The translations under genes were made by a program, and so were the position numbers. A stretch of DNA of 40,438 nucleotides from an uncultured Candidatus Saccharibacteria bacterium (GTDB lineage: Bacteria; Patescibacteriota; Minisyncoccia; JACQLN01; CAZPCT01). Location: contig CAZPCT010000005.1 in assembly GCA_964585325.1 (NCBI GenBank), positions 1-40,438 on the forward strand, in the 5' to 3' direction. The first letter of the stretch is position 1. Every line of letters starts with the position of its first letter. Positions 3,393 to 37,547 of this stretch are shown piece after piece. The notes below the pieces were generated by a model. That model saw nothing but the letters and a program-made list of their open reading frames with translations. It ran no database searches and was not told the origin of the DNA.

Positions 3393-4192
3393 CTACACAA
3401 GAAGAGGTCCAAAAACGTCTTTCGGCCGCAGGAACCACTCCCAACAAACTGCGGGGACAACATTTTTTGGTAGACAAAAGTATGTTGGAGAAGGTTGCGA
3501 ATGCGGCAGACATTACGGTAGGGGAGAGAGTATTGGAGATAGGGCCCGGCGTAGGAAATCTGACAGACGCTCTTCTTTCAAAGGGGGCAGTGGTGACCGC
3601 TATAGAAAGGGACACAGCGCTCGCCGCCTTTCTTGCCCGCCACTATGGAGACTCCGTGGAAGTTCACTCGCAAGACATTCTTTCTTTTGACACAACACCA
3701 CTACCTGCGCAATACAAAGTGGTGGGCAATGTGCCCTACTACATAACGGGTAAGATCATACGCAAGTTTATGGAGAGTTCACACCTCCCGCAACGCGTGG
3801 TGTTCACTGTTCAAAAAGAGGTTGGCGAGCGCACTGCCGCGCGCCCACCTCACGCCACATTCCTTTCTGTCCTAACCCAGCTTATGGCAGACGTTTCGTT
3901 GGGTCCCGTCATTCCGGCGGACAGTTTCTGGCCAGCACCAAGGGTTGATTCCATTATTCTTGTTATTGTTCCACATGGAACACAGCCAGACCCTTCGCTT
4001 GTTTTATTGGTTCGCCAAGGATTCCATCAGCCACGAAAGACGCTCATCAACAACCTGGCGCAGCTTCCAGCATATGAACGGGACACAGTTCTGGGTGCGC
4101 TGAGACAGATGGACAGAGACGAAAAAACGAGAGCTCATGAACTCTCGTTAGACGAGTGGCAAAAACTATTTCTGTCATTAAAAACCGGGTAA
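3389..4192 (+). CDS. rsmA: 16S rRNA (adenine1518/1519-N6)-dimethyltransferase RsmA/KsgA
   Basis: GQHFLVD and the SAM-binding VLEIGPGVGNLT motif, followed by VVGNVPYYIT. The GTG start overlaps the helicase stop (GTGA at 3389-3392). Confidence 0.9.
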   Translation: MTTQEEVQKRLSAAGTTPNKLRGQHFLVDKSMLEKVANAADITVGERVLEIGPGVGNLTDALLSKGAVVTAIERDTALAAFLARHYGDSVEVHSQDILSFDTTPLPAQYKVVGNVPYYITGKIIRKFMESSHLPQRVVFTVQKEVGERTAARPPHATFLSVLTQLMADVSLGPVIPADSFWPAPRVDSIILVIVPHGTQPDPSLVLLVRQGFHQPRKTLINNLAQLPAYERDTVLGALRQMDRDEKTRAHELSLDEWQKLFLSLKTG

Positions 4193-5112: not shown

Positions 5113-5121
5113 TGGTATAAT
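5113..5121 (+). promoter_or_regulatory. Extended -10 promoter element (TGgTATAAT) in front of the 12-ORF operon
   Basis: TG at 5113-5114 and TATAAT at 5116-5121, 10 nt upstream of the ATG at 5132. There is no good -35. An AAACCTT motif copy lies at 5096-5102. Confidence 0.45.
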
Positions 5122-5131
5122 TAGTGTATGA

Positions 5132-5881
5132 ATGGGAATCACGGAGGGCATGCGTACACACTCAACATCTAAAAAGACGTTGTGGGTAACCGTGGGCGGT
5201 ATCGCCGTCTTTGTTATTGGAGCCGTTCTGGGCTCCTTTTTGGTGCTTGGCGCCAAAAGTTCAGACGGTAAAAGTTTCTCGGTAAAAAATCTGGCCACAG
5301 TGGACCTCTCCCACCAAACGGTCTCCCCACGCAGTACGCCCCAGATTGAAAACTACACAAAAGAATTTTCTAAAACACTTCTTAACCCTTCAGGATGGGG
5401 CCAGCTTGGAGAAGACGCACAATTGTCAGATGCTCTGCTGACCCGGGACATGGGCCCGCTGGTGGAAGACTACATCAACAAAATCTCGCGCCTTCCTGAG
5501 AACACCTCGCTCAACATATCTCACTCAGTCCCACCCGAAACATATCTCAAAAATGTGAAGGCGTATCTGGTGGTTGCCACGGAAGTGTTTATTGAGATCT
5601 CCACCGAAGACATCCGTCTGTTGGAAAATGCGGAGGTACAACGCCACTACCAGAAAGACGCCTTGTTGGTGGAGGATATATTTGACGCTCTTCTGGAGCA
5701 GCCTGTTCCGCCGCAGTATGAGGCGTTGCACACCGAAACACTTATCTTTGTACATGGCCTTACAGCAACATTGGACACCGTGGGACAGCACAGCGCAGAC
5801 CCCGCCCGCACTCTTTTGCTGCCCGCCTCAACCAAACTGTTGACCGACCAACTAAACAGTGTCCTTGACCTCCTGCCATGA
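5132..5881 (+). CDS. Operon ORF1: hypothetical single-pass membrane protein with a predicted helical ectodomain
   Basis: One TM segment (TLWVTVGGIAVFVIGAVLGSFLVLGA) and a hydrophilic remainder. The stop overlaps the next start (ATGA at 5878). No recognisable motif. Confidence 0.6.
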   Translation: MGITEGMRTHSTSKKTLWVTVGGIAVFVIGAVLGSFLVLGAKSSDGKSFSVKNLATVDLSHQTVSPRSTPQIENYTKEFSKTLLNPSGWGQLGEDAQLSDALLTRDMGPLVEDYINKISRLPENTSLNISHSVPPETYLKNVKAYLVVATEVFIEISTEDIRLLENAEVQRHYQKDALLVEDIFDALLEQPVPPQYEALHTETLIFVHGLTATLDTVGQHSADPARTLLLPASTKLLTDQLNSVLDLLP

Positions 5882-7588: not shown

Positions 7589-9856
7589 ATGAATATTTCC
7601 TCCCGCACAATTAGGACGATGTCTCTTGCTCTTTTGACTGTGGTGGTAGTAGGTATTTTTGCCGTCCCTCAGCTTGCGGTGGCTCAGTCTGGTAGCTTTG
7701 GTGGCTCGGATATAGACGGTGATGGGATAACTGACAGCCGTGATAACTGCCCTTTTCAGAGCAATGGGCTTCAACAAGACAGTGACGAAGACGGGATAGG
7801 GGACGTATGTGACGAAGACCAAGGAGGCGATCCGGATGGGTCCACATTACTTACAGTTGACCGTGCTGCCGATGCAGTAAAAAACCTCCCGGCTCAGGTG
7901 ACGAACCTTGTTGCAGGCGCTTTGGCAAACGGCCCCATCGCAGATGCGGTTTTCAATGGCCTTGCGGCAATGATCTCGCTTCTTACTGCGTTTTTTGGCG
8001 TGTGGATTTTTGTGGGAGCCGTGCTACTCAACTGGGCGTTCTCGCTAGGGAGTCTCACTGGTTCCACGTTTGTGTTAACCGGGTGGTCTATTGCACGGGA
8101 CCTGGTAAATATGCTCTTTATTCTTATTTTGCTCCTTATTGCGTTTGCCACTATTCTCCGCTACCAAACGTATGGTATTAGGAACGTTCTTCCCCGCCTT
8201 ATTATTGTGGCGCTTCTTATAAACTTCTCTCTTTTGGGTGCGGGTATCATTATAGACATCGGGACCACACTTGGGCAGTACTTCACTACCGGCGGGGACC
8301 CAGCCATTGATGTGGGAATCAACATGATGGGTGCATTAGGAATTCAGCGAACATTCATACCGGAATGGTTTAAAGGAGAAAATGTTCCCGAATTTTTCCA
8401 AGGAGGGAAGGGGGGGTCCTTTCACGGGTGGGAGCTTTTTGCCTACGCGCTTTCTAATCTCTTCTTCGTTCTCATAACCACGTTCATCTTTCTTGCTATA
8501 GCCATTATTATGGTGGTGCGGGTGGTCTACCTTTGGATCCTTTTGGTATTTATGCCGTTCGCGCTTGCCGCGTGGATAGTGCCGGATCTGCGAAATTACT
8601 GGAAAAAGTGGTGGAGTCAGTTTGTGCAGTGGGCGTTTATCCCTGCGGCGCTCGGCTTTTTCATATATTTTGCGCTCTTGGTTGCGACCGGCTTTAATGA
8701 GTTCTTTCTAGCCAACGAACTTCGGTCTACCCCCAGTGCTGAGTTGGATCGTATTACTAACTTCTTTGGCTACGCCCCTCAGGTCCTCCTGCAATTTATG
8801 GCCGTTATTATCATTCTGCTTATGGGTCTCACACAATCAAAGAAAGCGGTGTTCGGCAGTGTAAAGTTCCTAGAAACGGCATCAAATGCAGCCACAAAAG
8901 CAGCAAAAGGATATGCTGGGAAGAAGGGGCGGCAAGCATGGGAGACGGGTGCCGACCGAGCCGTACACGATAAAGAAGGAAACAAGCGGGATTGGGCCGT
9001 TAAGCTTTCTAATGTTGCGGGCGCGCGTCACTTACTGCGTCCTGTGGTGGGGGCCGCAGAATCACATAGGGCAAATATTAAAAAACGTTCAAAGGAGCTG
9101 GGAAAGATGAGTCTCAGTTCTCGCTCTCTTTTGTATAAAACACAGGACGCTGAAGGAAAGGCGGCCACAGTTCATAGTTTTGGAGGTAAAGTTCCTACAT
9201 ATACCGAGGCTGATGATGAGGCTGGAAAAATTCCGACTGGAAAGAAGATTGGAGACTTTAACACTGAAAAGGTTCCAGGCATGACGGAGAAGGACTTTGA
9301 AGAACAGTTGGGCGCGCTCAAGGAGATTAACCTGGCAGATGACCTGCTTGAAGCTGCTCCTCAGTTTGCCAAACTTGTGGGGAAGAAGACGGCAGATGAG
9401 ATTGGTAAGGTTTTGGGCAAGATGGACATCAAGAAAGCGGGGGGCATTATCTCTTCCGCCTTCTACAATCCCGATGTCCAAGATCAGCTTTTTCGGCAGT
9501 TCCAGTCCACTGGTTCTTTAGACAAAGCGCACATGGCCGCTATGATGTCTAAAAACCCCAAGGCCATGCTTCACTTCTTAGAAACCAAGGGCCTTGTTTA
9601 TAAAAATACAGCAGATAATTTTGTACCGGCGGAGGAAGAAGTCTTTAACAACGAGCACATAAAGGCCTCTATCACCGAGTATGTGCACAGTTATATGGGA
9701 AAGAAGGTTCCTGGTGCGGGCTCTGGAGCCACGCGCACAGACGGCACTACATATGTTGGTGTTGAGCCTGAAGAAGGCGATGGAGACCGAGAGCCGCCCG
9801 AAGCGCCGGAGAAGTATGGTGAGCCTGTAGACGCCGAAGAAAGTGGGGACGAATAA
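7589..9856 (+). CDS. Operon ORF3: polytopic VirB6/TrbL-like channel protein with N-terminal thrombospondin type-3 Ca-binding repeats and a ~325-aa hydrophilic C-terminal tail
   Basis: Signal peptide ending AVAQ. DIDGDGITDSRDNCPFQSNGLQQDSDEDGIGDVCDED matches the TSP3 consensus DxDxDGxxDxxDNCPxxxNxxQxDxDxDGxGDxCD. About 7-8 hydrophobic helices between aa 110 and 430. The VirB6 assignment rests on topology and gene context only. Confidence 0.6.
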   Translation: MNISSRTIRTMSLALLTVVVVGIFAVPQLAVAQSGSFGGSDIDGDGITDSRDNCPFQSNGLQQDSDEDGIGDVCDEDQGGDPDGSTLLTVDRAADAVKNLPAQVTNLVAGALANGPIADAVFNGLAAMISLLTAFFGVWIFVGAVLLNWAFSLGSLTGSTFVLTGWSIARDLVNMLFILILLLIAFATILRYQTYGIRNVLPRLIIVALLINFSLLGAGIIIDIGTTLGQYFTTGGDPAIDVGINMMGALGIQRTFIPEWFKGENVPEFFQGGKGGSFHGWELFAYALSNLFFVLITTFIFLAIAIIMVVRVVYLWILLVFMPFALAAWIVPDLRNYWKKWWSQFVQWAFIPAALGFFIYFALLVATGFNEFFLANELRSTPSAELDRITNFFGYAPQVLLQFMAVIIILLMGLTQSKKAVFGSVKFLETASNAATKAAKGYAGKKGRQAWETGADRAVHDKEGNKRDWAVKLSNVAGARHLLRPVVGAAESHRANIKKRSKELGKMSLSSRSLLYKTQDAEGKAATVHSFGGKVPTYTEADDEAGKIPTGKKIGDFNTEKVPGMTEKDFEEQLGALKEINLADDLLEAAPQFAKLVGKKTADEIGKVLGKMDIKKAGGIISSAFYNPDVQDQLFRQFQSTGSLDKAHMAAMMSKNPKAMLHFLETKGLVYKNTADNFVPAEEEVFNNEHIKASITEYVHSYMGKKVPGAGSGATRTDGTTYVGVEPEEGDGDREPPEAPEKYGEPVDAEESGDE

Positions 9857-9876
9857 AACGTAAATCGTAACACATC

Positions 9877-10677
9877 GTGGTGAACACACAACTTCCATCC
9901 TGGGTCCAAGAAATGCCTGCCTCCGTAGAAAAGGAGGGGTGGGTGCGTTTTTATGCTCTTCCTGAGAGGTTGCGTGAGATGCTCTTTGATGTAGATATTG
10001 CCAACACAATGTGGCGGATAGGCCATCATACGTACGGGCTTCCGGCAAAAACAGTGAGTGCTGTGTCTGGAATAGCCGGGCTGGTAGTCCAGGGACAACT
10101 TCCGTTACAACAATTCGTTCCTCGTCTTATAGAAGAAGCGGGGCTTGACAGGAAAACTGCTCTGAGCGTGGCGCGGGACATTAATGAACAGATATTCCAG
10201 CCGGTGCGTGAGGAGCTGATGACCGTCCATGGGATTTCCCCGCAGGGAGAGGCGCGGGACCAGTCCGCTGAACCAGCAAACAGCCGGGCGGGGCAGATAG
10301 AAGCGAGGGAGCAGAACGCCCAACAAAAAGGTGGGGAGGAGGGGGCACAAAGAAAGCGGGATGAGTTGCTTGAGCGGTTGAAACAATCCCAAGAGGAACG
10401 GGGAGTAGATATATCCCCAGGGCCAGAGAATAAAAGCGAAGAGAGCAACTCTGGGGGGCAGAAAGGGGGTGGGGCGGCCGAGCCTAAAGCAACAACGGCG
10501 GCGTGGAACGGAAAGAAGATAGATCTCACCAAAATTCCTCCCCGCAGAGAGATGAATGGGAATGGGGACGGGAACCCCCTTGTTGCCGGGTCAAACGGCG
10601 AGATAAACGGTAGTGGCGAGAAAGAAAAGACTGTCCGTCTTAAAAAAGGTCCCGACGGTTATTGGTACGAGGTATAA
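9877..10677 (+). CDS. Operon ORF4: hypothetical soluble protein (helical N-terminal half, Gly/Glu/Lys/Asn-rich disordered C-terminal half)
   Basis: GTG start 20 nt after ORF3. It is the only operon ORF without a TM segment or signal peptide. Low-complexity tail: QQKGGEEGAQRKRDE...GGQKGGGAAEPK...NGNGDGNP. Confidence 0.55.
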   Translation: MVNTQLPSWVQEMPASVEKEGWVRFYALPERLREMLFDVDIANTMWRIGHHTYGLPAKTVSAVSGIAGLVVQGQLPLQQFVPRLIEEAGLDRKTALSVARDINEQIFQPVREELMTVHGISPQGEARDQSAEPANSRAGQIEAREQNAQQKGGEEGAQRKRDELLERLKQSQEERGVDISPGPENKSEESNSGGQKGGGAAEPKATTAAWNGKKIDLTKIPPRREMNGNGDGNPLVAGSNGEINGSGEKEKTVRLKKGPDGYWYEV

Positions 10678-14392: not shown

Positions 14393-15142
14393 ATGAAACA
14401 CTTTGTATACATTTTAGTAGCCACCCTTGTTGCCTGGCCCATTGTCTCGCACGCTCAACTTGATGTCTTTACGCCTCTCTTCCAACAAAACACGTCCACT
14501 ACACGAAACGACTTTCCTCTTGACCTGGTGTGGAAAGCGCACACCAACACACCCGCGTTCTATGAAGGAAAGCCGCTTCCTACTAACGGCAGCCTGGTAA
14601 GCGTGGTGGCGCTGACCCCCACACAGAACACTGGCACGCTCACGTTCTTCTGGGAGACAGACGGTGTTTCGCTTGGCAGCCAGGGGACGGAGCTTGAAGG
14701 AAGAGGTGAAGATGTGTTTACGTTCATCACAAACCCTGTCATTCTCCGTCCACGACACACAGTGAGTGTCACGGCACAAAACCTTGCAACCGGCCACGTT
14801 TCCTCCGCAACGGTGGTGATTCCCGTACAAGACACGGAGGTAAAGGCCTATCTTATGAGTAGAGATACAGGTATTTTTTCTCAACATATTGACCGGTTGA
14901 ACGTGGCGCCCGGAAGCACACTTACGCTCCTTGCCGCACCATTTTATTTTGCAGAGCCCACGAGCGAGTTGGTGTTTTCCTGGACGTTCGGTAGAAAGCC
15001 CGTCTTTAACACTGGGAGCCCCGCGCTTCTAGATGTCTTTATCAACCCTGCAAGTGGCCGTGGCAGCCAAGACGCTCGGGTGGACGTGCGCGGTTCCCGT
15101 TCCCAGGCAAGTACTCATACCACCATCACCGTCTCACCATGA
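14393..15142 (+). CDS. Operon ORF9: hypothetical secreted protein, apparently two tandem beta-sandwich-like modules
   Basis: Signal peptide MKHFVYILVATLVAWPIVSHA. Two ~100-aa segments with similar patterns (GTLTFFWETDGVSLG.. and SELVFSWTFGRKPVF..). No known motif. Confidence 0.6.
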   Translation: MKHFVYILVATLVAWPIVSHAQLDVFTPLFQQNTSTTRNDFPLDLVWKAHTNTPAFYEGKPLPTNGSLVSVVALTPTQNTGTLTFFWETDGVSLGSQGTELEGRGEDVFTFITNPVILRPRHTVSVTAQNLATGHVSSATVVIPVQDTEVKAYLMSRDTGIFSQHIDRLNVAPGSTLTLLAAPFYFAEPTSELVFSWTFGRKPVFNTGSPALLDVFINPASGRGSQDARVDVRGSRSQASTHTTITVSP

Positions 15143-15867
15143 AAGCAGTATACCCGGTCATTATTATCATCCTATCATTGCCGGCCTGGCACGTCCGGGC
15201 GCAGGCCGATCCCACTGAAAGCACGCGTGTCCTTGAGGTAAACTATCCCGGAGGAAAACTTAACGAGCTGGGAGAGGCTGGAAAGCTGGGGCCGCTTCAA
15301 TGGGTTGAGACTATCTACGACTTTGCGTTTGTCATAGTAGGGGCGGTGGCGTTCATTTCTTTGGTCTATGCGGGCATCAGGTGGATGACCTCACGGCAGG
15401 ACGAGGGTATTAGGGACGCCAGAGACCGCATGCAGGGAGTTGTTTACGGCCTTCTTTTGCTGGGTGTCTCTGTTCTCCTTCTTAATCTTATTAATCCGGA
15501 TCTCACAAAACTACGAGAACCGCTTGTTAAGCCGCCCAAATCCACACTCCCAGAAAGTCCTGGTGGGGGAAGTACAAACGACCCTCGGCCCGGGCCCGAA
15601 GCAGGTTATGGGACCGCTTGCACCTTGGCAGGGGGCGGCACGGGGCCGGAGTGTTTACAGTACCAAAACCTAGAATGTAAACACACGGGTTATATTGGAG
15701 GAGGACAAAGTGGTCTCAGGTCTGGGACATGCGCTCTTCCTGACCAACTGGAGTTGGGGGAAAGTTGTTTGTTAAATGTGATTGACGTCTGCGCACCTCC
15801 ATTGCGATGTGTACGCGCTGAAAATTCAAACGCGCCCGCGAGTGTCGGCACATGCACTGCACAATGA
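15139..15867 (+). CDS. Operon ORF10: VirB2/TrbC-topology T4SS pilin-like protein with a C-terminal Cys-rich extension
   Basis: Signal peptide ending VRAQA. Two hydrophobic helices (IYDFAFVIVGAVAFISLVYAGI / VVYGLLLLGVSVLLLNLI) are split by the charged loop RWMTSRQDEGIRDARDRMQ. A Pro/Gly linker and an ~85-aa tail with 10 Cys follow. Confidence 0.65.
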   Translation: MKAVYPVIIIILSLPAWHVRAQADPTESTRVLEVNYPGGKLNELGEAGKLGPLQWVETIYDFAFVIVGAVAFISLVYAGIRWMTSRQDEGIRDARDRMQGVVYGLLLLGVSVLLLNLINPDLTKLREPLVKPPKSTLPESPGGGSTNDPRPGPEAGYGTACTLAGGGTGPECLQYQNLECKHTGYIGGGQSGLRSGTCALPDQLELGESCLLNVIDVCAPPLRCVRAENSNAPASVGTCTAQ

Positions 15868-19005: not shown

Positions 19006-19211
19006 GTATTCAGTAGTTTAGCAAAGGGTAATTATTATGACTATAGCACCGCCTCTATGTTCTTCATTCATTGACGGGGAAGTATATTAACACGTCTTCA
19101 ACAATGTTTCCACATCAGATAGTTTCTGCCTCACTCTTTACGCTGGGGTGTGGATATGTGATATACTACCTCCTGCATTATAGTTTCGTGTTTCTCACAA
19201 ATCCTACCGAC
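19006..19211. other. rpmH-dnaA intergenic region: putative oriC/dnaA-promoter segment with DnaA-box-like 9-mers
   Basis: TGTGGATAT at 19149-19157 (rc ATATCCACA, 8/9 to TTATCCACA). GTTTCCACA at 19107-19115 (7/9). AT-rich stretch at 19027-19046. The rpmH extended -10 TGcTATAGT lies on the minus strand at 19040-19048. Confidence 0.45.
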
Positions 19212-20588
19212 ATGCCCACCCCCACAACCACCGAAGAGCTCTGGCAAACAGCCCTTGCCGAAATAGAGGTGTCTATTTCAAAGGCAAACTTTCTCACGTG
19301 GTTTAAAAACACCTCCATTGTAAACAAAAAGGAGGGGGTGGTGGTTCTGGCGGTTCCCAATGCCTTCACTAAAGAGTGGTTGGAGAACAAATATCATCAG
19401 TTGGTCCTCCGCTCACTCAGGAACACCGCAAATGATATTAAGGAGGTTAAGTTTATGATAGACGCCCGCGCGGCAGAAAGGGGCGTGCCCGGGCACAAGG
19501 CGCGCGGTTCCTCAGAGGACGCAATGGACGCACAACTTAATTTTGGAGACACAACCATAGACAAGGAGACGAACCTCAATCAAAAGTATACATTTGAGAC
19601 CTTTATTGTGGGCTCCTCTAATGAACTGGCGCACGCCGCCGCGCGGGCGGTTAGCGAGAATTTGGGGAGTGTGTACAACCCCTTGTTTGTGTACGGTGGT
19701 GTCGGCCTTGGAAAAACACACCTTCTCCAATCTATTGGTAATACTGTGCTGGCGCAGGACTCCCGTAAAAGGGTCCGATACGTCACCTCTGAACAGTTTA
19801 CGGGGGAGATTTTGGGCGCCATTAGAAGTGGCCGGGGTATTGAGGAGGTAAAAGAGGAATACCGGTGGGTTGATTTACTTATTATTGATGATATTCAGTT
19901 TCTGTCTGGAAAGGAGAAGACGCAGGAAGAGTTTTTTCACACATTTAACGCCCTTTATGAAAAGAATAAGCAAATAGTCCTCTCCTCAGACCGTCCACCA
20001 AGTGCTATTCCTACACTAGAAGAACGGCTGAGCTCTCGCTTTGAGGGTGGTATGATCGCCGACATATCCGCTCCTGATTACGAAACCCGTCTTGCAATTC
20101 TAAAATCAAAAGCGGGTGAGAAGAATCTAGACCTGGATGATAATATTTTTGAATATATTGCAGACACTATTACCTCTAATATTAGGGAGTTGGAGGGAGC
20201 GCTTAATAGAGTGATTGCCACCATGCGCCTTACCGGCAAACAACCTTCTTTAGATAAGGTAAAATCCCTCATCACCTCAAACAAACAACACGCGCGGAGT
20301 AAGTTGACCCCTAAAACTATTATTAAAATTGTTTCAGAGTTTTATGATGTAAAAGAGGAGCAGTTAATGAATCAGTCGCGCAAACGGGAGATTGTGAAAC
20401 CTCGGCAGGTGTGTATGTATCTTATTAGGGAGGAGCTTAAAAATTCCTACCCATACATTGGTGATAAGTTTGGGGGCCGCGATCACACCACTGTTATGCA
20501 TGCGGTTAATAAAATAAGTAAGGAGTTGGAGAAGGATAGTGTGTTGGTTGAAGAAATTAATCTTATCAAAGGTCGTCTTTTGAATTAG
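19212..20588 (+). CDS. dnaA: Chromosomal replication initiator protein DnaA
   Basis: ELWQTALAEIE.. N-terminal domain, YTFETFIVGSSNELAHAAA, Walker A GGVGLGKTHLL, LLIIDDIQF, SDRPP, and a C-terminal DNA-binding helix (RQVCMYLIRE...IGDKFGGRDHTTVMHA). I chose the ATG at 19212; the track ORF begins at a TTG at 19071. Confidence 0.93.
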   Translation: MPTPTTTEELWQTALAEIEVSISKANFLTWFKNTSIVNKKEGVVVLAVPNAFTKEWLENKYHQLVLRSLRNTANDIKEVKFMIDARAAERGVPGHKARGSSEDAMDAQLNFGDTTIDKETNLNQKYTFETFIVGSSNELAHAAARAVSENLGSVYNPLFVYGGVGLGKTHLLQSIGNTVLAQDSRKRVRYVTSEQFTGEILGAIRSGRGIEEVKEEYRWVDLLIIDDIQFLSGKEKTQEEFFHTFNALYEKNKQIVLSSDRPPSAIPTLEERLSSRFEGGMIADISAPDYETRLAILKSKAGEKNLDLDDNIFEYIADTITSNIRELEGALNRVIATMRLTGKQPSLDKVKSLITSNKQHARSKLTPKTIIKIVSEFYDVKEEQLMNQSRKREIVKPRQVCMYLIREELKNSYPYIGDKFGGRDHTTVMHAVNKISKELEKDSVLVEEINLIKGRLLN

Positions 20589-20825
20589 TGTGCATATCTT
20601 TGGGAAAGTGTGGTGGTAGGAGTGGTATAACTCCCGCACAACACTCGGAGTTAAAAAGATCACTTTCTTCTTCCCGTTTATTTCCGTGTGTTATACACAC
20701 GCTTTCCTGTTTAAGAAAGAGAAAATTATTTGTTTGGTTGTGTGACAGACTCAATAATCGTTTCTTTTCTACAGTTTTCCCATTACCCACACCGCTAATA
20801 GTAATAAGTTTTAAATAAAGACTTT
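20589..20825. other. dnaA-dnaN intergenic region: putative oriC segment (DnaA boxes plus an AT-rich stretch)
   Basis: TTATACACA at 20691-20699 and TTACCCACA at 20783-20791 (each 8/9 to TTATCCACA). AT-rich run CTAATAGTAATAAGTTTTAAATAAAG at 20795-20820. The 237-nt gap has no ORF I consider real (the 76-aa track ORF at 20588-20818 has no motif). Confidence 0.5.
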
Positions 20826-21929
20826 ATGAATATAACCTGCTCACACTCACGTCTTCGTTCCGCCCTTGAGGTTTGTGAGCGGGTCATTACGCGGCACCTG
20901 ACGCTTCCCATACTCAACAATGTTCTTCTTCGTGCTGAAAACAACCAGCTCACTATTTCTGCTACAAATCTTGAGGTGGGGATGGTGGCAACAATCCCTT
21001 GTAAAACCACAACCAAGGGGGAGCTTACAGTTCCTGCCAAGGTGTTCTATGGAATAATCGCCAACCTTACGGGTGACACCGTCACACTTTTTTCAGAAAA
21101 GAAGCACGTCCTCGCCATTGAAGCAGGGGGGTATTCTGGGACGGTTAAGGGAGAGGGGGGTGATGAGTTTCCTATTATCCCAACACTTACCAAAACACCC
21201 CTTTTCACAATACAGGGAGAGGTTTTTTCAGGGGCACTAGCAAACGTGGTCCCATTTACTGCGGTCTCAGATACCCGGCCCGAGCTCACAGGAGTGTTGT
21301 TTTATAAAGAAAAAAAAGAAGAGATTGATTTTGTGGCGGCCGACGGTTTTCGGCTTGCCCAACGGAAGGTAAAAGATTTTAAAACACTTACTACACCTCC
21401 TTTTTCCCTTATTGTGCCCCAAAGAACGGTGGCAGAAATTATCCGCATCACAAAAGAAGAAGACGAAGTGGAGGTGCGCTGCGACGAAAAACAGCTGGAA
21501 GTCAAAACAGGCACCTATCGGCTTATTTCACGAACTATTGAGGGAACATATCCAAACCACACCACACTCATTCCCACCACCTTCAACACCTCAGCAATTA
21601 TTGATACTGAAAACGCAGTAAAAAACATCCGCCTTGTTAGTCTCCTCTCTAGTCGCATCAACGACATCCGCCTCCATATTGAACCTGGAGAGGGTGTTAC
21701 GTTCAAAACACAAGATCCTGATATGGGAGAGAGTGTTTCGGTGGTGACAGCGGATATAGAGGGAGAGGTGTTGGAAATAAGTTTTAATTGGCGGTACTTA
21801 CTTGAAGGGTTGCAGAATATAGGAGACAAAAAAGCGCTTATGCGGTTTATTGATGGTGAAAAGGCGGCTCTTATCCAACCCACAAAAAACAAAGATTATC
21901 TATATGTGGTTATGCCGCTCAGAACGTAA
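20826..21929 (+). CDS. dnaN: DNA polymerase III beta sliding clamp
   Basis: 367 aa, directly after dnaA. Typical start (L..AL..v.rvi....tlPIL.nvLl.a....l.isATdLE) and end (..yLyVvMPlR). Confidence 0.9.
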   Translation: MNITCSHSRLRSALEVCERVITRHLTLPILNNVLLRAENNQLTISATNLEVGMVATIPCKTTTKGELTVPAKVFYGIIANLTGDTVTLFSEKKHVLAIEAGGYSGTVKGEGGDEFPIIPTLTKTPLFTIQGEVFSGALANVVPFTAVSDTRPELTGVLFYKEKKEEIDFVAADGFRLAQRKVKDFKTLTTPPFSLIVPQRTVAEIIRITKEEDEVEVRCDEKQLEVKTGTYRLISRTIEGTYPNHTTLIPTTFNTSAIIDTENAVKNIRLVSLLSSRINDIRLHIEPGEGVTFKTQDPDMGESVSVVTADIEGEVLEISFNWRYLLEGLQNIGDKKALMRFIDGEKAALIQPTKNKDYLYVVMPLRT

Positions 21930-22231
21930 TGCTTTCTTCTTTTGACCAACTTCTTAAAAGGTACGCACAAAAACTAACAAGCGGGTCACACAGCGCATAT
22001 TTAGCCATACAAGACGAATGGGAGCCGGTTTTGAAAGAGGTTGGGGTTGGAGTCATTCTTACGCCAGTGGCGTACAAAGAAAAAACTCTCCACGTCCACT
22101 GTTCGTCCTCTGAGGAAGCTGCTTTAGGGCGGCTCTATAAAAGAGCGCTCATGCAGTGTCTCAATGCCCGACTTCAACGAAGTCATGTAACAGATATTGT
22201 TTTTACCCCATCACATGAGCGGACACAATAA
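21929..22231 (+). CDS. DUF721/DciA-like small protein
   Basis: 100 aa immediately after dnaN, the usual DUF721 position. Pattern W..v......a..t.pv.~~~~~L.V.~~ss~~a~.L. Assigned mostly by context. Confidence 0.5.
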   Translation: MLSSFDQLLKRYAQKLTSGSHSAYLAIQDEWEPVLKEVGVGVILTPVAYKEKTLHVHCSSSEEAALGRLYKRALMQCLNARLQRSHVTDIVFTPSHERTQ

Positions 22232-24872: not shown

Positions 24873-27332
24873 ATGAGCGAACAGAAACATCCACAGAAAT
24901 TGCGCATCCTACGGCTTTTGGCCGTAGGTATTATTGTACTAGTGGCCCTGGGTTTGGCTACGTTCTTGGTGTTTGCTGTTACTCTGCCGGAGCCTGCGGA
25001 CATTGAAGCACGGTTTGTGCTTGAGTCAACAAAAATCTATGACCGCACGGGCGAGGTGGTGCTCTACGACATTTACGAGGAAGAGCGACGCACAGTCATT
25101 GCGTTTGAAGAAATACCTACACACGTCAAACAGGCGACCATCGCCATTGAAGACCAAAACTTTTACGAACATGTTGGTATTGACCTCAAGGCCATTGTCC
25201 GTGCGTTTTTGAGCAACCTGCGCTCTGAACGGACACAGGGAGGCTCCACTATCACACAGCAATTCATAAAGAACTCTATCCTCTCTCCCGAACGCACCCT
25301 TATCAGGAAGGTTAAGGAGGCCATTCTGGCGCTTGAGCTTGAGCGTAGGTATGAAAAAGACGAAATCCTTGGGTTTTATCTCAACCAGATCGCGTACGGG
25401 TCCAACGCATATGGCGTGGAGTCTGCATCCCAGACCTTTTTTGAGAAGCCAGCGCGAGAACTTACATTACCTGAGGCGGCGCTCTTGGCCGCTCTTCCTA
25501 AGGCACCCACATACTACTCGCCGTACGGTTCCCACGTAGACGAGCTTGTGGGACGCAAGAACTTAGTGCTTGACCGCATGTCAGAGCTAGGTTTCATCAC
25601 CCCCGAACAGGCAGTGGAAGCTAAGGAAGTGGAGCTGGAGTTTTCTCAGGCGCGCACAGGCATCAAAGCCCCACACTTTGTTTTTTATATTCAGGAGCTC
25701 CTTGAAGAGAAGTATGGTCCCGACTTTCTTGCGCAACAGGGCCTTAAGATTATCACAACCGTAGATTGGGACCTTCAAGAAAAAGCTGAGACGATTGTAC
25801 GAGAGCAAGCGGCGATAAACCAACCAAGAGGAGCGTTTAACGCTGCCCTTGTCGCGGTTGACCCCAAGACGGGCCAGATCCTCTCCATGGTGGGCTCCAG
25901 AGACTTTTTTGAGGAGTCGCTCCCGGCTGGCTGCACGCCAGGCGTTAACTGCAGGTTTGAGCCACACGTGAACGTAGCTGTGCGAGAGAGGCAGCCGGGG
26001 TCCGCATTCAAGCCGTTCGTGTACGCGACAGCCTTTGAGAAAGGATACACGGACAACACCATTCTATTTGACCTGTTTACCGAATTTAATGCTTCGTGCA
26101 GTCCTGGGGGAACGCCGAGCCGGTCTGGTGTACAGTGTTATCATCCACGGAACTTTGACGGGACGTTCAGGGGGCCCATCAACATACGGACCGCGCTCGC
26201 GAATTCTATAAACGTACCTGCGGTCAAAGCACTTTATTTGGCCGGTATAGATAACGTTATTCGCACAGCACAGGATGTTGGCATCTCAACCTTTCGCGAC
26301 AGAGACCGCTATGGTTTGTCACTTGTTTTGGGGGGCGCAGAGGTGCAGCTTGTGGAGCTTACGGGTGCGTACGGCGTTCTTGCCAATGACGGCACAAGAA
26401 ATCCCGTGGTGGGGATATTACGTATTGAGGACAAGGAGGGTAATGTTCTGGAAGAATTCAAAGAGCAACCCGTGCGCGTGATGGACTCCCAGGTGACACG
26501 CATGGTCACAGACATCCTTAGCGACAATCAAGCCCGCTCTCTTGTTTTTGGAATAAATAACAGACTGAACTTTGCCAATAGACAAGTGGCGGCGAAAACA
26601 GGAACAACAAACGACTTTAGGGACGGGTGGACGTTTGGCTATACACCCAATATTGCCGTGGGTGTGTGGGCAGGAAACAACGACAATAGGCCGGTGACGG
26701 GTGCAGAGCCGGGCATCTCTCTTGCCGGCCCCATCTGGAGATCTTTTTTGGAAGAGGCTTTTGAACAAGAGGACAAAGACGGGAATAAGAAATTTCCCGC
26801 AGAGGGGTTTTCCTCACCAGATCCTCGGCCGCGTAATAAAGCGATACTGAACGGGGAGTACGTGGTGGATGGAGAGGTGCACACTATTTTACACTATGTA
26901 GCCAAAGACGATCCTCTTGGGCCCGTACCCTCAAACAAAGACCCTCTTTACACAAACTGGGAGGCGCCCGTAAGAGGATGGTTTGGTGGGGCGGTGGAAG
27001 GCGAGGGGCAGGGTGGACCAGTGGTCATTACCTCACCGTCGTCAGGCGCTATTTTAGGCGGGGGTCCGTTCGTTGTGCGTGCACAAAATAACGCTCCTAA
27101 CGAAGTGGAGCGCGTTGAGTTTTATCTTAATAGCAACCTCATTCAAACCTTTTCGGGAGGAAGTGAGGTATATGAGCTTCAATTTCCACCTCTTCCGGAG
27201 CCCGGATCCTATCAAATAACCGCCCGGTCTTATTTTACGGACACGGAGCGGGGGGCTACCGACTCTTCGGTTACCGTGCAGGTGGTTGGCGCAGAAGGGA
27301 TCCTCCCCCAGACCCTAGGTGTTCGTAGGTGA
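24873..27332 (+). CDS. Class A penicillin-binding protein (GT51 transglycosylase + transpeptidase, PBP1A family) with a C-terminal Ig-like extension
   Basis: N-terminal anchor. GT51 motifs: [28 protein letters not shown]. Transpeptidase motifs: SAFKPF (SxxK), SIN (SxN), KTGTT. Confidence 0.92.
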
Positions 27333-28299
27333 GTGGAGTAGCGGCCCGTCCTTTTGGTGTGCGGGTGATAAACCCTGCTTGCAGCAGATATGGTTCGTAC
27401 ACATCGGCAATAGTGTCTTGCTCCTCCCCTATTGAGGCGGCCAGGGCGTGAAGTCCCACAGGCCCCCCATTAAAAGTGGTGACAATGGCTGTTAATATTT
27501 TGCGGTCCATCTGTTCAAGGCCATGTGCGTCAACCTCCAACATCTCAAGCGCTGCGCGCGCCGAGTCAAGGGTAATGCGCCCATCTCCCTTTACCTGGCT
27601 ATAATCCCGCACCCGCTTTAATAGGCGGTTTGCCACACGGGGGGTGCGGCGCGCTCGTTCAGCAATAGCGGCCAGGGCGCTTGCGTCTGCCTCTACGTTG
27701 AGGATGCGTGCGGAACGAACAAGTATGGTGCCAACTTCCCCTGTGCTATAAAAATCAAGATGATAATTTGCCCCAAACCGTGATCTGAAAGGGGCAGAGA
27801 GGAGCCCCGATCGGGTGGTGGCCCCCACGAGCGTAAAGTGTGGGAGCTGTAGTTGTACAGTGCGTGCGGACGGACCTTTTCCCACCACAATATCAAACGT
27901 AAAGTCTTCCATGGCGGGATACAAAACTTCCTCCACCGCGCGGTTGAGACGATGTATTTCATCAATAAAAAGAACACTTCGCTCTTCAAGATTCGTCAAT
28001 ATTGCTGCAAGGTCTCCCACACGCTCTATTGCTGGGCCCGAGGTGACGCGGATAGGAGCGCTCGTTTCTTGAGCAATAATGTGTGCCAGTGTCGTTTTTC
28101 CCAGCCCCGCGGGTCCTGAGAGAAGGACATGATCAAGCGCCTCGCCCCGCTTTTGGGCGGCCTGTAGGAAAATGCGCAATAGGTCCTTTATGCGGTCTTG
28201 TCCCACATATTCTTTCAGGGTGTGGGGCCGTAATGTCGCATCAAGGCGCTCATCTTCACTGGTGTGCTGAGGTGTTGTCTCTGTGCCTTTCTTGATCAT
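27271..28299 (-). CDS. ruvB: Holliday junction branch migration ATPase RuvB
   Basis: [12 protein letters not shown], Walker [12 protein letters not shown], Walker [28 protein letters not shown] chose the ATG at 28299. Its 3' end overlaps the convergent PBP gene by 62 nt. Confidence 0.92.
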
Positions 28300-28331
28300 T
28301 GTTTCTATTCTAGCACATTTAGGTGTAGGGG

Positions 28332-28360
28332 TTGACAGCTTAGTAGGCATCAGTTACAAT
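28332..28360 (+). promoter_or_regulatory. Near-consensus sigma70 promoter TTGACA-17 nt-TACAAT pointing into the ruvB-pilB gap
   Basis: TTGACA at 28332-28337, a 17-nt spacer, and TACAAT at 28355-28360. It lies inside the spurious 5' extension of the ruvB track ORF. Confidence 0.6.
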
Positions 28361-28366
28361 GGGACT

Positions 28367-28612
28367 ATTGGAGGAGATTCTATATCTCTCCATTTTTGTA
28401 CTCTTTGCTTGTGGGTCTGTGCTAAATGAGGATTGTCCTCAGAACTAGGACGGAATGGATGATGCGTCTAACGCATTGTCTGCACCGCTCCTCGGGACCT
28501 TTCTCACTCCGTGATTCCCAATGTTTCGGTGGCTGTTCCCAAGAGCAGCTTTAGCACAGGCCCATCGGCAAAGACACAGAAAAAGACGCCTTAAGGCGTC
28601 TTTTTCTGTTGG
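28367..28612 (+). ncRNA. Candidate structured small RNA (~245 nt) of unknown class
   Basis: Bounded by the promoter above and the hairpin terminator at 28577-28608. A 24-position closing helix pairs 28403-28426 with 28550-28573 (1 mismatch, 3 G-U). Internal hairpins at 28428-28440, 28457-28481 and 28532-28549. There is no ORF of 60 aa or more, only a 42-codon ATG ORF without an SD sequence. Confidence 0.5.
28577..28608. terminator. Perfect 14-bp hairpin terminator (bidirectional: end of pilB on the minus strand, end of the candidate sRNA on the plus strand)
   Basis: CAGAAAAAGACGCC-TTAA-GGCGTCTTTTTCTG. It begins 22 nt beyond the pilB stop (28630). Confidence 0.75.
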
Positions 28613-28629
28613 ACGCACCTCCGTGTACG

Positions 28630-30291
28630 CTAGGTTCCTGGTGTGGTCACACGGTGCACCTCGTCTAGGGTAGTGGAGCCTTGCACCACTTTACGGAGCC
28701 CGTTGATATACATACTTTGGAATCCGCGCTCATCTGCGTATGTCTGAACCTCGTGGTGGGTGGGCGAACGAGAAAGAAGTTCTTCAAACGCCGCATCTGC
28801 TACAAGAAGCTCAAACACTCCTGCCCGGCCCTGGTATCCGGTCTCTGAGCAGACTATGCACCCTTTTGCGGCAAAGATCGGCGGGCGTTTTTCAAGCGAA
28901 GGGAGGAGCTGCGGATGTTTTTGAAACGCGCCCTCTATTTCGGTAAACACTTTTTGATACTCACCTTCTTCTAGTGGTTTTTTACATGCGTCGCATAGAC
29001 GACGCACAAGTCGCTGGGCGATTACTGCCCGCAACGCCGAGGCGAGGATGGGTGGTTTTGCGTTAAGATCTAAAAACCGGGGTACGGCGCCGGCCGCATC
29101 ATTGGTGTGGAGCGTAGAGAGCACGAGGTGGCCCGTCAGCGCGGCATGCAGGGCTGTCTCTGCCGTCTCACCATCCCGTATCTCCCCAACTAAAATAATG
29201 TCTGGGTCGTGACGAAGAGTGGCCCTAATACCCTCGGCAAAGCCGTATCCCTTTTTGTCCTCAATTTGCGTTTGGGATATACCATCAAGATGATACTCTA
29301 TAGGGTTTTCCAGCGTCACTATCTTCACTTCAGGCTTTTTTAAATACGCAAGAAAGGCGTAGAGCGTGGTGGTCTTACCCGATCCGGTGGGTCCCGTGGT
29401 CAGAACAATACCATTAGGAAGCTCTAGTTGAGGGCGCAAGGCGTCCCACAAATCTTGTTCTAATCCCAGCTCACTTACACTAAGAGCAACAGCGTCTGGA
29501 TTCAGAAGACGCAGTACCAGATACTCACCCTCAGGGCTGGGAAGAATGGAGACGCGAACTTCTGCCTCTCGTGTGTTGCGGGCTACCGTGAAGCGGCCAT
29601 CATGGGCGGTTGAGGTTATGTTGAGAGGGATGTGCGCAACAACTTTGATGCGGGAGAGAAGGCGCCGGTAGACATCGGGAGTGATGGTGGCCACATCCTG
29701 GAGTATGCCGTCCAGACGCAGACGCAGACGCGCGCCGCTGTCTGTTGGCTCAATATGAAGGTCTGAAGCCCCCAGCTCAAGCCCAGAAGCAAGCAGCAGT
29801 TCAAAGAGGGCGCTGGTGCTTTCCTCGGCTGCCTTTGGGGCGGCCTCTTTTAAGGAAACGAGTGTTGATGTGGAAGGGGTTGTGGTGCCTATGTGTACCG
29901 TATCGCCAATGTCGTCTCGCGTGCGGGGAATCTGTTTGTACTCTTCTAGGGCGCGGGAAAAGGATGGGGGAGAGATGAGCACAGGTGTGGCAACGAACCC
30001 CTGTTCGCTTAAACGACGCATAACCTGGAGAGTCTCTGTGTTGTCTGGGTCTACCACCCCCACTCGTAGGTTGTTTTGTTGTTTTTCAAGTGCAACAATG
30101 CGCCCCCGCTCCGCGTCGTCTTGCGGGATGAGCGCAATGACGTCACGCTTGAGCTGCCGAGGGTCGCCACTAATGTTGGTGTACGGCATGCCTCTTTGCT
30201 TCGCTTCTCGCTCAAGAGAAGACTCCGCCCCAGAACGGTGAAGCTCCCTTAGTTTTTGTTCGCGCTCCTGCGCCAACGAACGTTCGTCCAT
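28630..30291 (-). CDS. pilB: GspE/PilB-family secretion ATPase (type IV pilus assembly ATPase-like)
   Basis: N-terminal T2SSE_N-like region. Walker A GPTGSGKTTT, Asp box, Walker B IILVGEIRD, His box LSTLHTN, and a tetracysteine motif CDACKKP....CIVCSETGYQGR. Confidence 0.88.
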   Translation of the reverse strand: MDERSLAQEREQKLRELHRSGAESSLEREAKQRGMPYTNISGDPRQLKRDVIALIPQDDAERGRIVALEKQQNNLRVGVVDPDNTETLQVMRRLSEQGFVATPVLISPPSFSRALEEYKQIPRTRDDIGDTVHIGTTTPSTSTLVSLKEAAPKAAEESTSALFELLLASGLELGASDLHIEPTDSGARLRLRLDGILQDVATITPDVYRRLLSRIKVVAHIPLNITSTAHDGRFTVARNTREAEVRVSILPSPEGEYLVLRLLNPDAVALSVSELGLEQDLWDALRPQLELPNGIVLTTGPTGSGKTTTLYAFLAYLKKPEVKIVTLENPIEYHLDGISQTQIEDKKGYGFAEGIRATLRHDPDIILVGEIRDGETAETALHAALTGHLVLSTLHTNDAAGAVPRFLDLNAKPPILASALRAVIAQRLVRRLCDACKKPLEEGEYQKVFTEIEGAFQKHPQLLPSLEKRPPIFAAKGCIVCSETGYQGRAGVFELLVADAAFEELLSRSPTHHEVQTYADERGFQSMYINGLRKVVQGSTTLDEVHRVTTPGT

Positions 30292-30365
30292 GGTTTCATT
30301 GTAGCGTGAGAGAGGTAAAAATACGAACCTTTCCTTCGGGGGGTGCGTCTGTTAGGATACAGCAC

Positions 30366-30821
30366 ATGACTCACACTGTGCGGGGCCCGCACGATCTTGA
30401 TGAGGTTGTGCGGCTGGAAATGAAGAAGCGTCTTGAACGTGCCGCAGGCCAGCCGCTGGTGTGTGCCTTGATTGGTGAGTTGGGTGCTGGAAAATCAACT
30501 TTTACGCGGCGGTTTGCTACTTTTTTAGGCATAGGCGAGGCTGTTATAAGCCCCACTTTTCTATTGATAAAATCCTACCCAATCCCCGTGCCCGTGTGCG
30601 GCAAGAGCGCTCTTGTGCACGTTGATGCATATCGCGTGGCGTCTTCGGAAGAGTTTGCGGCACTCCAGTTGCCTCAACTAATGAGCGCTCCGGACACCAT
30701 CACCGTGGTTGAGTGGGCAGACCGCATACGAGACATCATTCCTCAAGGCGCCCTTTGGATGTCATTTGGTATTGTTGACGAGCATACCCGAACTATTGAG
30801 ATCAATGACAACAACTCCTAA
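30366..30821 (+). CDS. tsaE: tRNA t6A37 threonylcarbamoyladenosine biosynthesis ATPase TsaE
   Basis: LIGELGAGKSTFTRRF, ISPTFLLIKSY, HVDAYRV, VVEWAD. I chose the ATG at 30366. Confidence 0.85.
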   Translation: MTHTVRGPHDLDEVVRLEMKKRLERAAGQPLVCALIGELGAGKSTFTRRFATFLGIGEAVISPTFLLIKSYPIPVPVCGKSALVHVDAYRVASSEEFAALQLPQLMSAPDTITVVEWADRIRDIIPQGALWMSFGIVDEHTRTIEINDNNS

Positions 30822-36962: not shown

Positions 36963-37547
36963 ATGATCGGGTATCTTGAAGGAGCCATTATCGCATCTGA
37001 CGACAAGTCTGTCATTGTGCATGCCGGTGGGGTGGGGTGGCGCGTCTTTTGTGGCCCGCTCACTCTCCAAGAGTGGCAGGAAAACGGAGGCGCGGTCAAG
37101 ACGTTTACCTATCTGTATGTACGGGAGGGTGTGCAGGACCTGTTTGGATTCCGTTCCCATGAAGAACTACGTTTTTTTGAGTTACTTATAGGGGTTTCGG
37201 GAGTGGGGCCACGGAGCGCGCAGCATATTATAGACACCCTCTCGCTTAACGTTGTTGTGGGGGCTGTTCAGAGCAAAAAACCCGACGTGTTCACCCGTGT
37301 TTCTGGGGTGGGATCAAAGATTGCTCAACGTATCGTTATAGACCTTGAGCCCAAGTTGAAGTCCCACGGCTTTGCCTCTGACGCAGACCTTGTCACACTT
37401 GCGGAGGAGGACGAGGCCGTGTCCGCACTTGTCTCTTTAGGATACAAGCGGCGCGAGGCGCGCGAAGCGTTAGAGCACGTGGAGCCAGACGTCCAAGGGC
37501 CAGAAGAGCGGGTGAGGGCCGCCCTAAAACACTTAGGGAGAGCCTGA
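36963..37547 (+). CDS. ruvA: Holliday junction DNA helicase subunit RuvA
   Basis: MIGYLEGAII...VIVHAGGVGWRVF, HhH region LIGVSGVGPRSA...VSGVGSKIAQRI, and C-terminal domain III (ALVSLGYKRREA). Confidence 0.9.
   Translation: MIGYLEGAIIASDDKSVIVHAGGVGWRVFCGPLTLQEWQENGGAVKTFTYLYVREGVQDLFGFRSHEELRFFELLIGVSGVGPRSAQHIIDTLSLNVVVGAVQSKKPDVFTRVSGVGSKIAQRIVIDLEPKLKSHGFASDADLVTLAEEDEAVSALVSLGYKRREAREALEHVEPDVQGPEERVRAALKHLGRA

Follow-up and report, generated by a model that had tools for sequence, protein, structure and literature searches.

A conserved structured RNA gene between ruvB and pilB in Parcubacteria-type bacteria and a candidate antisense target in a type IV secretion-like operon

Most bacteria of the candidate phyla radiation (CPR) have not been cultivated. 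Their genomes, of about 1 Mb, leave hardly any intergenic DNA to spare, and for their epibiotic way of life they rely on surface machines, among them type IV pili and systems resembling the type IV secretion system (T4SS). In the stretch of 40,438 nucleotides analysed here, which we call the window, the gap at 28300-28629 separates two genes of the minus strand, ruvB and pilB, and contains, as had been pointed out before, no open reading frame (ORF) of 60 amino acids or more. What does this gap encode? Our analysis confirms that it holds a real, structured, non-coding RNA gene which forms its own transcription unit. The RNA founds a family absent from Rfam, and in kind it is a bacterial structured regulatory small RNA (sRNA). 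As for its role, we give about an even chance to the reading, built on comparison of sequences, that it is a lineage-specific trans-acting antisense sRNA carried on a large conserved scaffold.

The RNA gene and its fold

The finding is carried above all by the pattern of change among homologues. Homologous loci were taken from the contigs which encode the closest RuvB proteins and from a metagenome pattern scan with the most conserved stretch of the RNA. Six of the homologues, folded independently, share one architecture, and in an alignment of 14 sequences (A5) the structure given by RNAalifold has 57 pairs, 30 of them with compensatory double changes. Paired cells amount to 93.7%, as compared with 82.8% in shuffled alignments and 38-59% in slid controls, and all five pairing measures beat 500 of 500 shuffles. 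The fold of the window's own RNA is also far more stable than chance: the plus-strand RNA at 28362-28612 reaches -118.3 kcal/mol against -69.8 ± 4.6 kcal/mol for shuffled sequences (z = -10.6; 0 of 200 as good). A structured non-coding RNA was what the original prediction had read into this gap from the letters of the window, and the strong compensatory change among the ruvB-pilB intergenic regions of relatives, together with the lack of a conserved ORF described below, bears this out. The parts of the fold, all on the plus strand, are the following.

28403-28426: P1 closing helix, 5' strand, with a sequence-conserved top
28427-28506: long arm P2-P3-P4, in which helices 2 and 3 covary
28427-28432 with 28501-28506: P2a
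28435-28439 with 28494-28498: P2b
28440-28446: bulge of 7 nt on the 5' side (7-8 nt in the family, YAGAUUU)
28447-28453 (AGGACGG) with 28485-28492 (CCG(C)UCCU): P3
28456-28467 with 28471-28482: P4, its base an invariant U·G, G·U and G-C, its apex variable
28507-28531: P5 hairpin, the most sequence-conserved part of the family (C.C.GUG.UUCCCAA)
28532-28549: P6 hairpin, GCUGUUC-CCAA-GAGCAGC
28550-28573: P1 closing helix, 3' strand

Overall, this is a four-way junction formed by P1, the long arm P2-P4 and the two 3'-side hairpins P5 and P6. P1 (helix 1) is 24-30 bp long in the family; 13 of its 19 aligned pairs have changed on both sides, 96% of its cells are paired, and its top is conserved as sequence (CUGUAGGYAA/UURCCURCAG). 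In the long arm, helices 2 and 3 have both sides changed in 15 of 26 pairs, and P2a and P2b in 7 of 10; P3 is kept in the family as AGGA/UCCU. The U·G/G·U pairs at the base of P4 are invariant in 14 of 14 sequences, and the apex of this helix varies in length by up to 50 nt (differences of 3 to 50 nt). P6 keeps its pairing while both its sequence and its length vary, from 18 to about 70 nt, as with GUUGUUC/GAGCAAC in the homologue L082 and a 70-nt hairpin in L084. P5 (helix 4; consensus CCCUG-U-GUUUCCCAAGAU-U-CGGGG) is the sole helix without any double-sided change (0 of 9 pairs), which indicates that here the sequence itself is constrained.

The elements that had been drawn from the window alone fared unevenly against this family structure. 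The 24-position helix between 28403-28426 and 28550-28573 is present as described, with one mismatch (T28410-C28566) and three G·U pairs, and the hairpin at 28532-28549 is our P6. The apical hairpin placed at 28457-28481 does exist, with its size and loop corrected to 12 bp (28456-28467 with 28471-28482) and CUA. Two further helices have to be given up. The hairpin GAGGA-UUG-UCCUC at 28428-28440 is not kept in the homologues, where its bases pair with 28494-28506 as the covarying P2a and P2b; and the GGAAU/AUUCC helix of 28452-28456 with 28514-28518 gives way to P3, in which 28447-28453 pairs with 28485-28492, leaving the AUUCC side in the loop of P5. What had been overlooked is the hairpin P5, which is complementary to an mRNA leader elsewhere in the window.

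The signals around the RNA, with the two flanking genes, are given next.

28332-28360, plus strand: sigma-70-type promoter of the RNA gene, TTGACA, 17 nt and TACAAT, an 11 of 12 match to the consensus
28367-28397, plus strand: 5' leader, with the Shine-Dalgarno (SD)-like UUGGAGGAG (28368-28376) in a hairpin at 28369-28392, followed by U5 at 28393-28397
28577-28612, both strands: intrinsic terminator, a perfect 14-bp hairpin (28577-28608) with U-runs on both strands
28307-28315, minus strand: extended -10 element of ruvB, TGCTAGAAT, 7 nt before the ATG at 28299
27271-28299, minus strand: ruvB (ATG at 28299), with the Pfam domains RuvB_N, AAA_lid_4 and RuvB_C
28630-30291, minus strand: pilB, a PilB-type T2SSE ATPase, stop codon at 28630

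The promoter and the terminator hairpin are both as originally described. The promoter, with its hexamers at 28332-28337 and 28355-28360, is the top promoter-like site within 3.5 kb, and transcription is predicted to start at about 28366-28368, giving an RNA of about 245 nt in total with a conserved core of about 170 nt. The terminator works in both directions, ending the RNA on the plus strand and pilB on the minus strand; the RNA gene is divergent from ruvB and convergent with pilB. Both signals are conserved in the homologues, in keeping with the independent transcription proposed for the RNA at the outset. TTGAC(A/T), a spacer of 16-17 nt and a -10-like hexamer were found at the equivalent place in 14 of 15 homologue loci scanned (the regular expression missed L108, where a TTGACA can be seen by eye), and in most loci there is a terminator or else a U-run immediately after P1. 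The extended -10 of ruvB stands back to back with the promoter of the RNA, and the ruvB-side ATTCTAGCACA is kept in the alignment A2, the element being conserved in the closer homologues (the window, L082 and L083, and L084 in part).

The 5' leader of the RNA deserves a separate comment. Its hairpin has an energy of -9.6 kcal/mol and is restricted to the closer relatives of the window: UUGGAGGAG is retained in the window, L082, L083 and L084 and appears as UUGGAGGGG in L086, and the SD-like element was not found in L089 or the L092 group. Such an SD-like sequence at the 5' end of an sRNA stands out in a window that is otherwise SD-poor. A hairpin with a run of five or six U right after the predicted start is also seen at the equivalent places of L082, L083, L084, L086, L088 and L099. 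The combination of hairpin and U-run resembles a terminator and might serve as an attenuator or to stabilise the 5' end; alternatively, the GAGGAG of the leader could pair with the invariant CUCCUC in the 3' strand of P3 (28488-28493).

It could be asked whether the conserved structure belongs to this RNA at all, rather than to a cis element such as the 5' leader of ruvB, an intercistronic pilB-ruvB structure on the minus strand, or a cis-antisense RNA. The element is found exactly between pilB and ruvB in all genomes, its terminator is bidirectional, and the minus strand folds well too (-99.1 kcal/mol, z = -7.3). However, the invariant or frequent G·U pairs would become A·C mismatches on the minus strand, and a covariance model built from the trimmed family alignment scores 109-167 bits in the sense direction and 17-33 bits in the antisense direction, a four- to eightfold difference. 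The promoters and terminators point the same way, and these three observations together fix the RNA on the plus strand. Moreover, ruvB has its own extended -10, lying downstream of the RNA gene, so that the ruvB mRNA does not overlap the RNA, and pilB terminates at the shared terminator. We therefore regard a cis element as very improbable.

A small-protein gene can be set aside with still more confidence. ORFs of 42 codons on the plus strand (28426-28554) and 57 codons on the opposite strand do exist in the window, but the ATG at 28426 is missing in most homologues and the longest ORFs begin at different places and in different frames from one homologue to another; a conserved ORF was sought across the homologues and not found. 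The lengths of the core differ by +26, +58, +5, -1 and -2 nt, thus by numbers that are not multiples of three, and the substitutions track base-pairing instead of codons. That either ORF is what selection has preserved here is hardly credible.

Homologues and known RNA families

The family as collected comprises about 11 distinct close homologues and two distant ones, L103 and L108, all metagenomic. The metagenome pattern scan returned 11 matches, of which nine are true, several of them from 0.1-µm groundwater filtrates; the remaining two, L100 and L102, were rejected as chance matches in GC-rich coding DNA. All homologues are flanked by the 3' end of pilB on one side and the 5' end of ruvB on the other, antisense to both, within a wider conserved order polA-tsaE-pilB-RNA-ruvB-PBP-tyrS (PBP, penicillin-binding protein), and the identity of their RuvB proteins to that of the window goes down to 64%. 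The distant L103, whose RuvB is named Portnoybacteria, and L108, on a contig of 654 kb, retain the promoter, P1 and the P3/P4 module.

To what lineage do these loci belong? The closest named RuvB proteins come from 'Candidatus Portnoybacteria' and 'Patescibacteria group' (63-66% identical), and the closest named UvrB proteins from 'Candidatus Sungbacteria', 'Minisyncoccia' and 'Parcubacteria group' (61-62% identical). An exact look-up of RuvB from the ATG at 28299 gave no match, and the longer call of 359 amino acids matched only an identical contig of 2 kb. A RuvB scan with one genome per species yielded 80 loci with a best identity of 60%, mostly from Acidobacteria, with a few from Saccharibacteria and Doudnabacteria. 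By the family covariance model the RNA is absent from those 80 loci of other phyla, and the Saccharibacteria and Doudnabacteria loci among them do not have the arrangement of pilB, gap and ruvB. So far, then, all members of the family that we have seen come from one Parcubacteria-type lineage of Patescibacteria, and each occupies the pilB-ruvB locus.

This distribution also bears on the idea that the element is a mobile repeat, of the kind of miniature inverted-repeat transposable elements (MITE) or repetitive extragenic palindromes (REP), whose terminal inverted repeats happen to form P1. P1 does have the form of a long and almost perfect inverted repeat, with sequence conservation at its inner ends. 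Yet in place of multiple dispersed copies the covariance model finds a single one in the 40-kb window and one per homologous locus, syntenic despite RuvB identities of only 64-80%, and neither a pattern scan of viral contigs nor blastn against phage and plasmid records gave a match. A single-copy, syntenic element unmatched in these collections is not a mobile repeat, and its compensatory changes and strand-specific G·U pairs speak of selection on an RNA which has, besides, its own promoter and terminator. We consider this origin highly improbable.

The RNA could still be a diverged member of a known family. Searched over the whole window at the gathering threshold, Rfam 15 gave no match; at E <= 10, the region 28250-28700 matched only unrelated sRNA models driven by the terminator, and nine homologue loci had no family in common. 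Models of 6S RNA, signal recognition particle (SRP) RNA, ribonuclease (RNase) P RNA, transfer-messenger RNA (tmRNA) and Y RNA gave no match at E <= 10 in 10 loci, and ARAGORN found neither tRNA nor tmRNA in the window. The absence of SRP, RNase P and tmRNA signatures, noted from the letters in the original prediction, is thus upheld by model-based searches, and so is its suggestion of a lineage-specific class: a covariance-model scan of the region against Rfam recovers no known family, and the homologues fall in one lineage. In the literature we found no description of this RNA in CPR/Patescibacteria and no account of a 6S or other noncoding RNA that fits it; the only related report in CPR concerns diverged RNase P RNAs (Lui et al. 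2021, PMC8172020).

Individual candidates can be dismissed for reasons of anatomy or context as well. SRP RNA, which is marked by a helix 8 with a GNAR tetraloop and conserved symmetric and asymmetric loops, has no Rfam match here, and the variable apex of the long arm, which is constant neither in sequence nor in length, speaks against this reading; a likeness to the SRP Alu domain comes down to a common 'CUGUA'. For RNase P RNA, with its P4 pseudoknot core and conserved regions CR-I to CR-V, and including its reduced form, there was no match at E <= 10 and the RNA is about half the minimal size; GAGGAUUGUCC in the window resembles the RNase P CR-I element and is not conserved in the homologues. 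The tmRNA candidate has neither a tRNA-like domain by ARAGORN nor an Rfam match. Y RNA (YrlA) has no Rfam match either; the P5 loop UGUUUCCCAAGAU is not a T-loop, and a Ro/Rsr gene is not among the conserved neighbours of the locus. Also rejected were a retron RNA (no reverse transcriptase), a guide or omega RNA (no nuclease or transposase nearby), a riboswitch, which would have no gene downstream given that the RNA and pilB converge, and a k-turn within the loop of P3/P4, where there is no tandem G·A.

A divergent 6S-like RNA had been offered as one possibility. 6S RNA binds the sigma-70 holoenzyme and templates product RNAs, and for this open-promoter mimicry it needs a large central bubble between the closing and the terminal stem, with a template 5' strand of about 10 nt or more that is single-stranded. 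In A5 the 5' side of the junction has only 0-2 unpaired nt between P1 and P2a, and since the 5' strand passes from P1 directly into the covarying P2a, the 6S reading fails on anatomy, in addition to having no model match at E <= 10.

A broader form of this idea has to be taken more seriously, namely that the RNA is a protein-binding or housekeeping RNA in which the rod and the four-way junction serve as a platform for a partner such as RNA polymerase (by 6S-like sequestration), a ribosomal or translation factor, or an RNase, and in which the complementarity of P5 described below is secondary or coincidental. Several helices are conserved in sequence as well as in pairing (the top of P1, AGGA/UCCU, the tandem U·G/G·U), P1 and the P3/P4 module persist in L103 and L108, which lack P5, the gene and its consensus promoter have been kept in very small and gene-dense genomes, and the length and the rod shape recall 6S RNA. 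Against this, none of the 6S, SRP, RNase P, tmRNA and Y RNA models match, the open bubble of 6S RNA is missing, and the conserved neighbours are housekeeping genes only, with no candidate partner protein among them. We hold such a role to be the main rival of the antisense reading, though less likely than it; the antisense and the protein-binding or housekeeping roles are compatible and do not exclude each other.

A few observations concern the surroundings of the RNA gene. The genes dnaA and dnaN lie at 19071-21929, where the window also has its lowest G+C (0.43 at 20001-22000), and because of both this is probably the region of the replication origin; the sRNA gene is about 7 kb from it, and the same proximity is seen in L108. 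In L108, 17 nt of the long arm of the RNA (UGGUGGGGUUUUGUUUA) are perfectly complementary to L108:686-702 (plus strand), just after the stop codon of rpsT and just before its terminator, with the RNA itself at 9773-9931 (minus strand); we estimate the chance of this at about 5e-4 for the locus, and the sRNA segment is base-paired in the predicted fold. Next to the RNA gene, a PBP1-type gene (24873-27332, plus strand) and ruvB (27271-28299, minus strand) converge with their 3' ends overlapping by 62 nt (27271-27332). On the other side, the annotated TTG start of polA (30709) falls within a tsaE-like ORF (30306-30821), and one of the two starts has therefore probably been miscalled.

A candidate target in the leader of the T4SS-like operon

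The window was searched for complements of the invariant P5. The proposed seed CUCCGUGAUUCCCA (28507-28520) is a perfect 14-nt complement of 5133-5146, the only such site in the window; by our estimate, chance alone would give about 0.05 such matches when the whole RNA is compared with both strands of the window. The features concerned are the following.

5133-5146, plus strand: candidate target site UGGGAAUCACGGAG, 14-nt complement of P5
11643-13409, plus strand: VirB4/TraG-type ATPase of the T4SS-like operon
15139-15867, plus strand: T4SS pilin of the T4SS-like operon

The site begins 10 nt after an extended -10 element, TGGTATAAT (5114-5122), at a distance of about 2-4 nt from the start of the transcript, and its end is 3 nt short of the ATG at 5150 of a membrane protein of 243 amino acids. 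This is the first gene of an operon of ten genes on the plus strand, from 5150 to about 16982, which encodes mostly unannotatable proteins along with the ATPase, the pilin and a protein of 755 amino acids that carries a thrombospondin type 3 repeat. The operon adjoins ksgA (3389-4192), as it does in L111, and looks like a chromosomal T4SS-like apparatus conserved in the lineage.

The energetics favour the same leader. When P5 was paired with 32 translation-initiation regions, the leader at 5150 came first, with a duplex energy of -28.3 kcal/mol as compared with -21.8 kcal/mol for the next. Opening the P5 region costs 4.75 kcal/mol, and with both partners opened the modelled energy of the interaction is -18.8 kcal/mol; these values are the hybrid energy plus the opening energies, as RNAcofold cannot represent intermolecular pairing within a loop. 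Only two orthologues of the 243-aa protein were found in the protein collection, and both leaders keep the motif: GCGGGAAACAUGGAG in L110 (L110:704) and UUGGGAAGCACGGAA in L111 (L111:3146). In these two, GGGAAnCAYGGA stands 8-10 nt after TGnTATAAT and the flanking sequence has diverged; the position of the leader motif UGGGAAnCAYGGAR is held relative to the promoter and not to the start codon. Each invariant position of P5 (C.C.GUG.UUCCCA) is opposite a conserved position of the mRNA (UGGGAA.CAY.G.G), and the variable central position is A in the sRNA and U in the mRNA in the window, as against U in the family consensus and A in L110, whose sample also yielded the sRNA locus L090. The lack of double-sided covariation in P5 is as expected for a seed.

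The proposed mechanism can be put together from these elements. The RNA would act in trans as an antisense regulator, with the C-rich loop and the 5' stem strand of P5 pairing with the G-rich UGGGAAnCAYGGAR. In the window about 27 of 30 gene starts have no SD sequence, and in many cases a -10 box (TATAAT, TACAAT or TAGAAT, often with an upstream TGn, for example at 5114-5150, 28297-28315 and 30291-30310) precedes the ATG by only 6-11 nt, which points to leaderless or very short-leader mRNAs, such as those of ruvB, pilB and the gene at 36963. Pairing at the 5' end of such an mRNA would block the loading of ribosomes or alter the stability or decay of the message, and both are plausible because the genome is SD-poor and uses leaderless or very short leaders. 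The covarying scaffold would provide stability and the correct display of P5, perhaps also a platform for protein binding. As is characteristic of trans-acting sRNAs, the RNA is a stand-alone unit from promoter to terminator without a conserved ORF, and P5 offers what appears to be a conserved, accessible seed against a conserved site in an initiation region. That P5 and the leader pair in vivo, and with what regulatory outcome, we infer from the sequences.

Several points weigh against this antisense reading. Only in the window is there a certain cognate pair of sRNA and mRNA, and there is one natural compensatory change only between P5 and the leader, in a second pair which is not certainly cognate. 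At a few places in the window, arbitrary 50-nt segments reach a similar raw duplex energy, so that the site, while in the top ~0.1%, is not unique in this respect, and five of the P5 nucleotides in the proposed duplex lie in the stem. L103 and L108 have a different 5' hairpin in the place of P5. Since these two lack P5, the ancestral function of the scaffold cannot be P5 pairing, which suggests that the scaffold has a function older than that. A scaffold of 170 nt with helices conserved in sequence (the P1 top, AGGA/UCCU, UGG/CUG) also exceeds what a simple antisense RNA needs, and this argues for a protein or some other partner.

One way to accommodate these points, more speculative and in our judgement rather unlikely, is that the conserved core, made up of P1, the arm with its bulge and AGGA/UCCU helix, and the tandem G·U pairs, is the RNA subunit of a novel ribonucleoprotein specific to Parcubacteria-type Patescibacteria, onto which one sublineage would have grafted P5 as an antisense module for the control of the T4SS-like operon, resulting in a dual-function housekeeping and regulatory RNA. 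Such a ribonucleoprotein could, for example, take over the function of 6S RNA, or act in translation or at the ribosome as a factor adapted to genomes with leaderless, SD-poor mRNAs.

Significance and comparison with known RNAs

The family is a new one for a region of the tree where almost none have been described, and it yields a covariance model ready for use in annotating such genomes. Our full-text literature searches brought up no paper describing small-RNA regulation in CPR. If the P5 pairing is true, CPR bacteria would have in it, as far as those searches show, their first proposed sRNA-target pair, one that ties RNA regulation to a secretion- or conjugation-like apparatus and shows antisense control working on near-leaderless mRNAs.

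Three known systems invite comparison. One is 6S RNA (RF00013 and relatives), with which our RNA has in common a core of about 170-190 nt, a long and mostly double-stranded rod closed by the 5' and 3' ends, an interruption in the middle of the molecule and a strong promoter. It differs in that the rod is interrupted by a four-way junction, which has two hairpins on its 3' side, where 6S RNA has an open bubble.

In its proposed target, the RNA recalls FinP of F-like plasmids, a cis-encoded RNA of about 79 nt which is fully complementary to the traJ leader and depends on FinO. Both are small structured RNAs whose loops pair, in our case by prediction, with the leader at the 5' end of a type IV secretion (conjugation) operon, ahead of its first regulatory or structural gene. 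Unlike FinP, however, our RNA is encoded 23 kb from the operon, has only 11-14 nt of complementarity to it, and is much larger.

A likeness in the presumed mode of action is found in the antisense sRNAs with C-rich loops of Gram-positive bacteria, such as the hairpins H7, H13 and H14 of Staphylococcus aureus RNAIII, and RsaE/RoxS. In these RNAs a UCCC-type loop motif pairs with a G-rich stretch of the initiation region, with no evident need for Hfq. Our RNA is similar in that it is stable, consists of several hairpins, is bounded by a promoter and an intrinsic terminator of its own, and has a conserved UCCC-type motif in a hairpin loop. It has no sequence or covariance-model similarity to them and is built, in contrast, on a covarying four-way junction with a closing helix of 24-30 bp; and its candidate target is found right at the 5' terminus of a short leader, in an SD-poor Patescibacterium.

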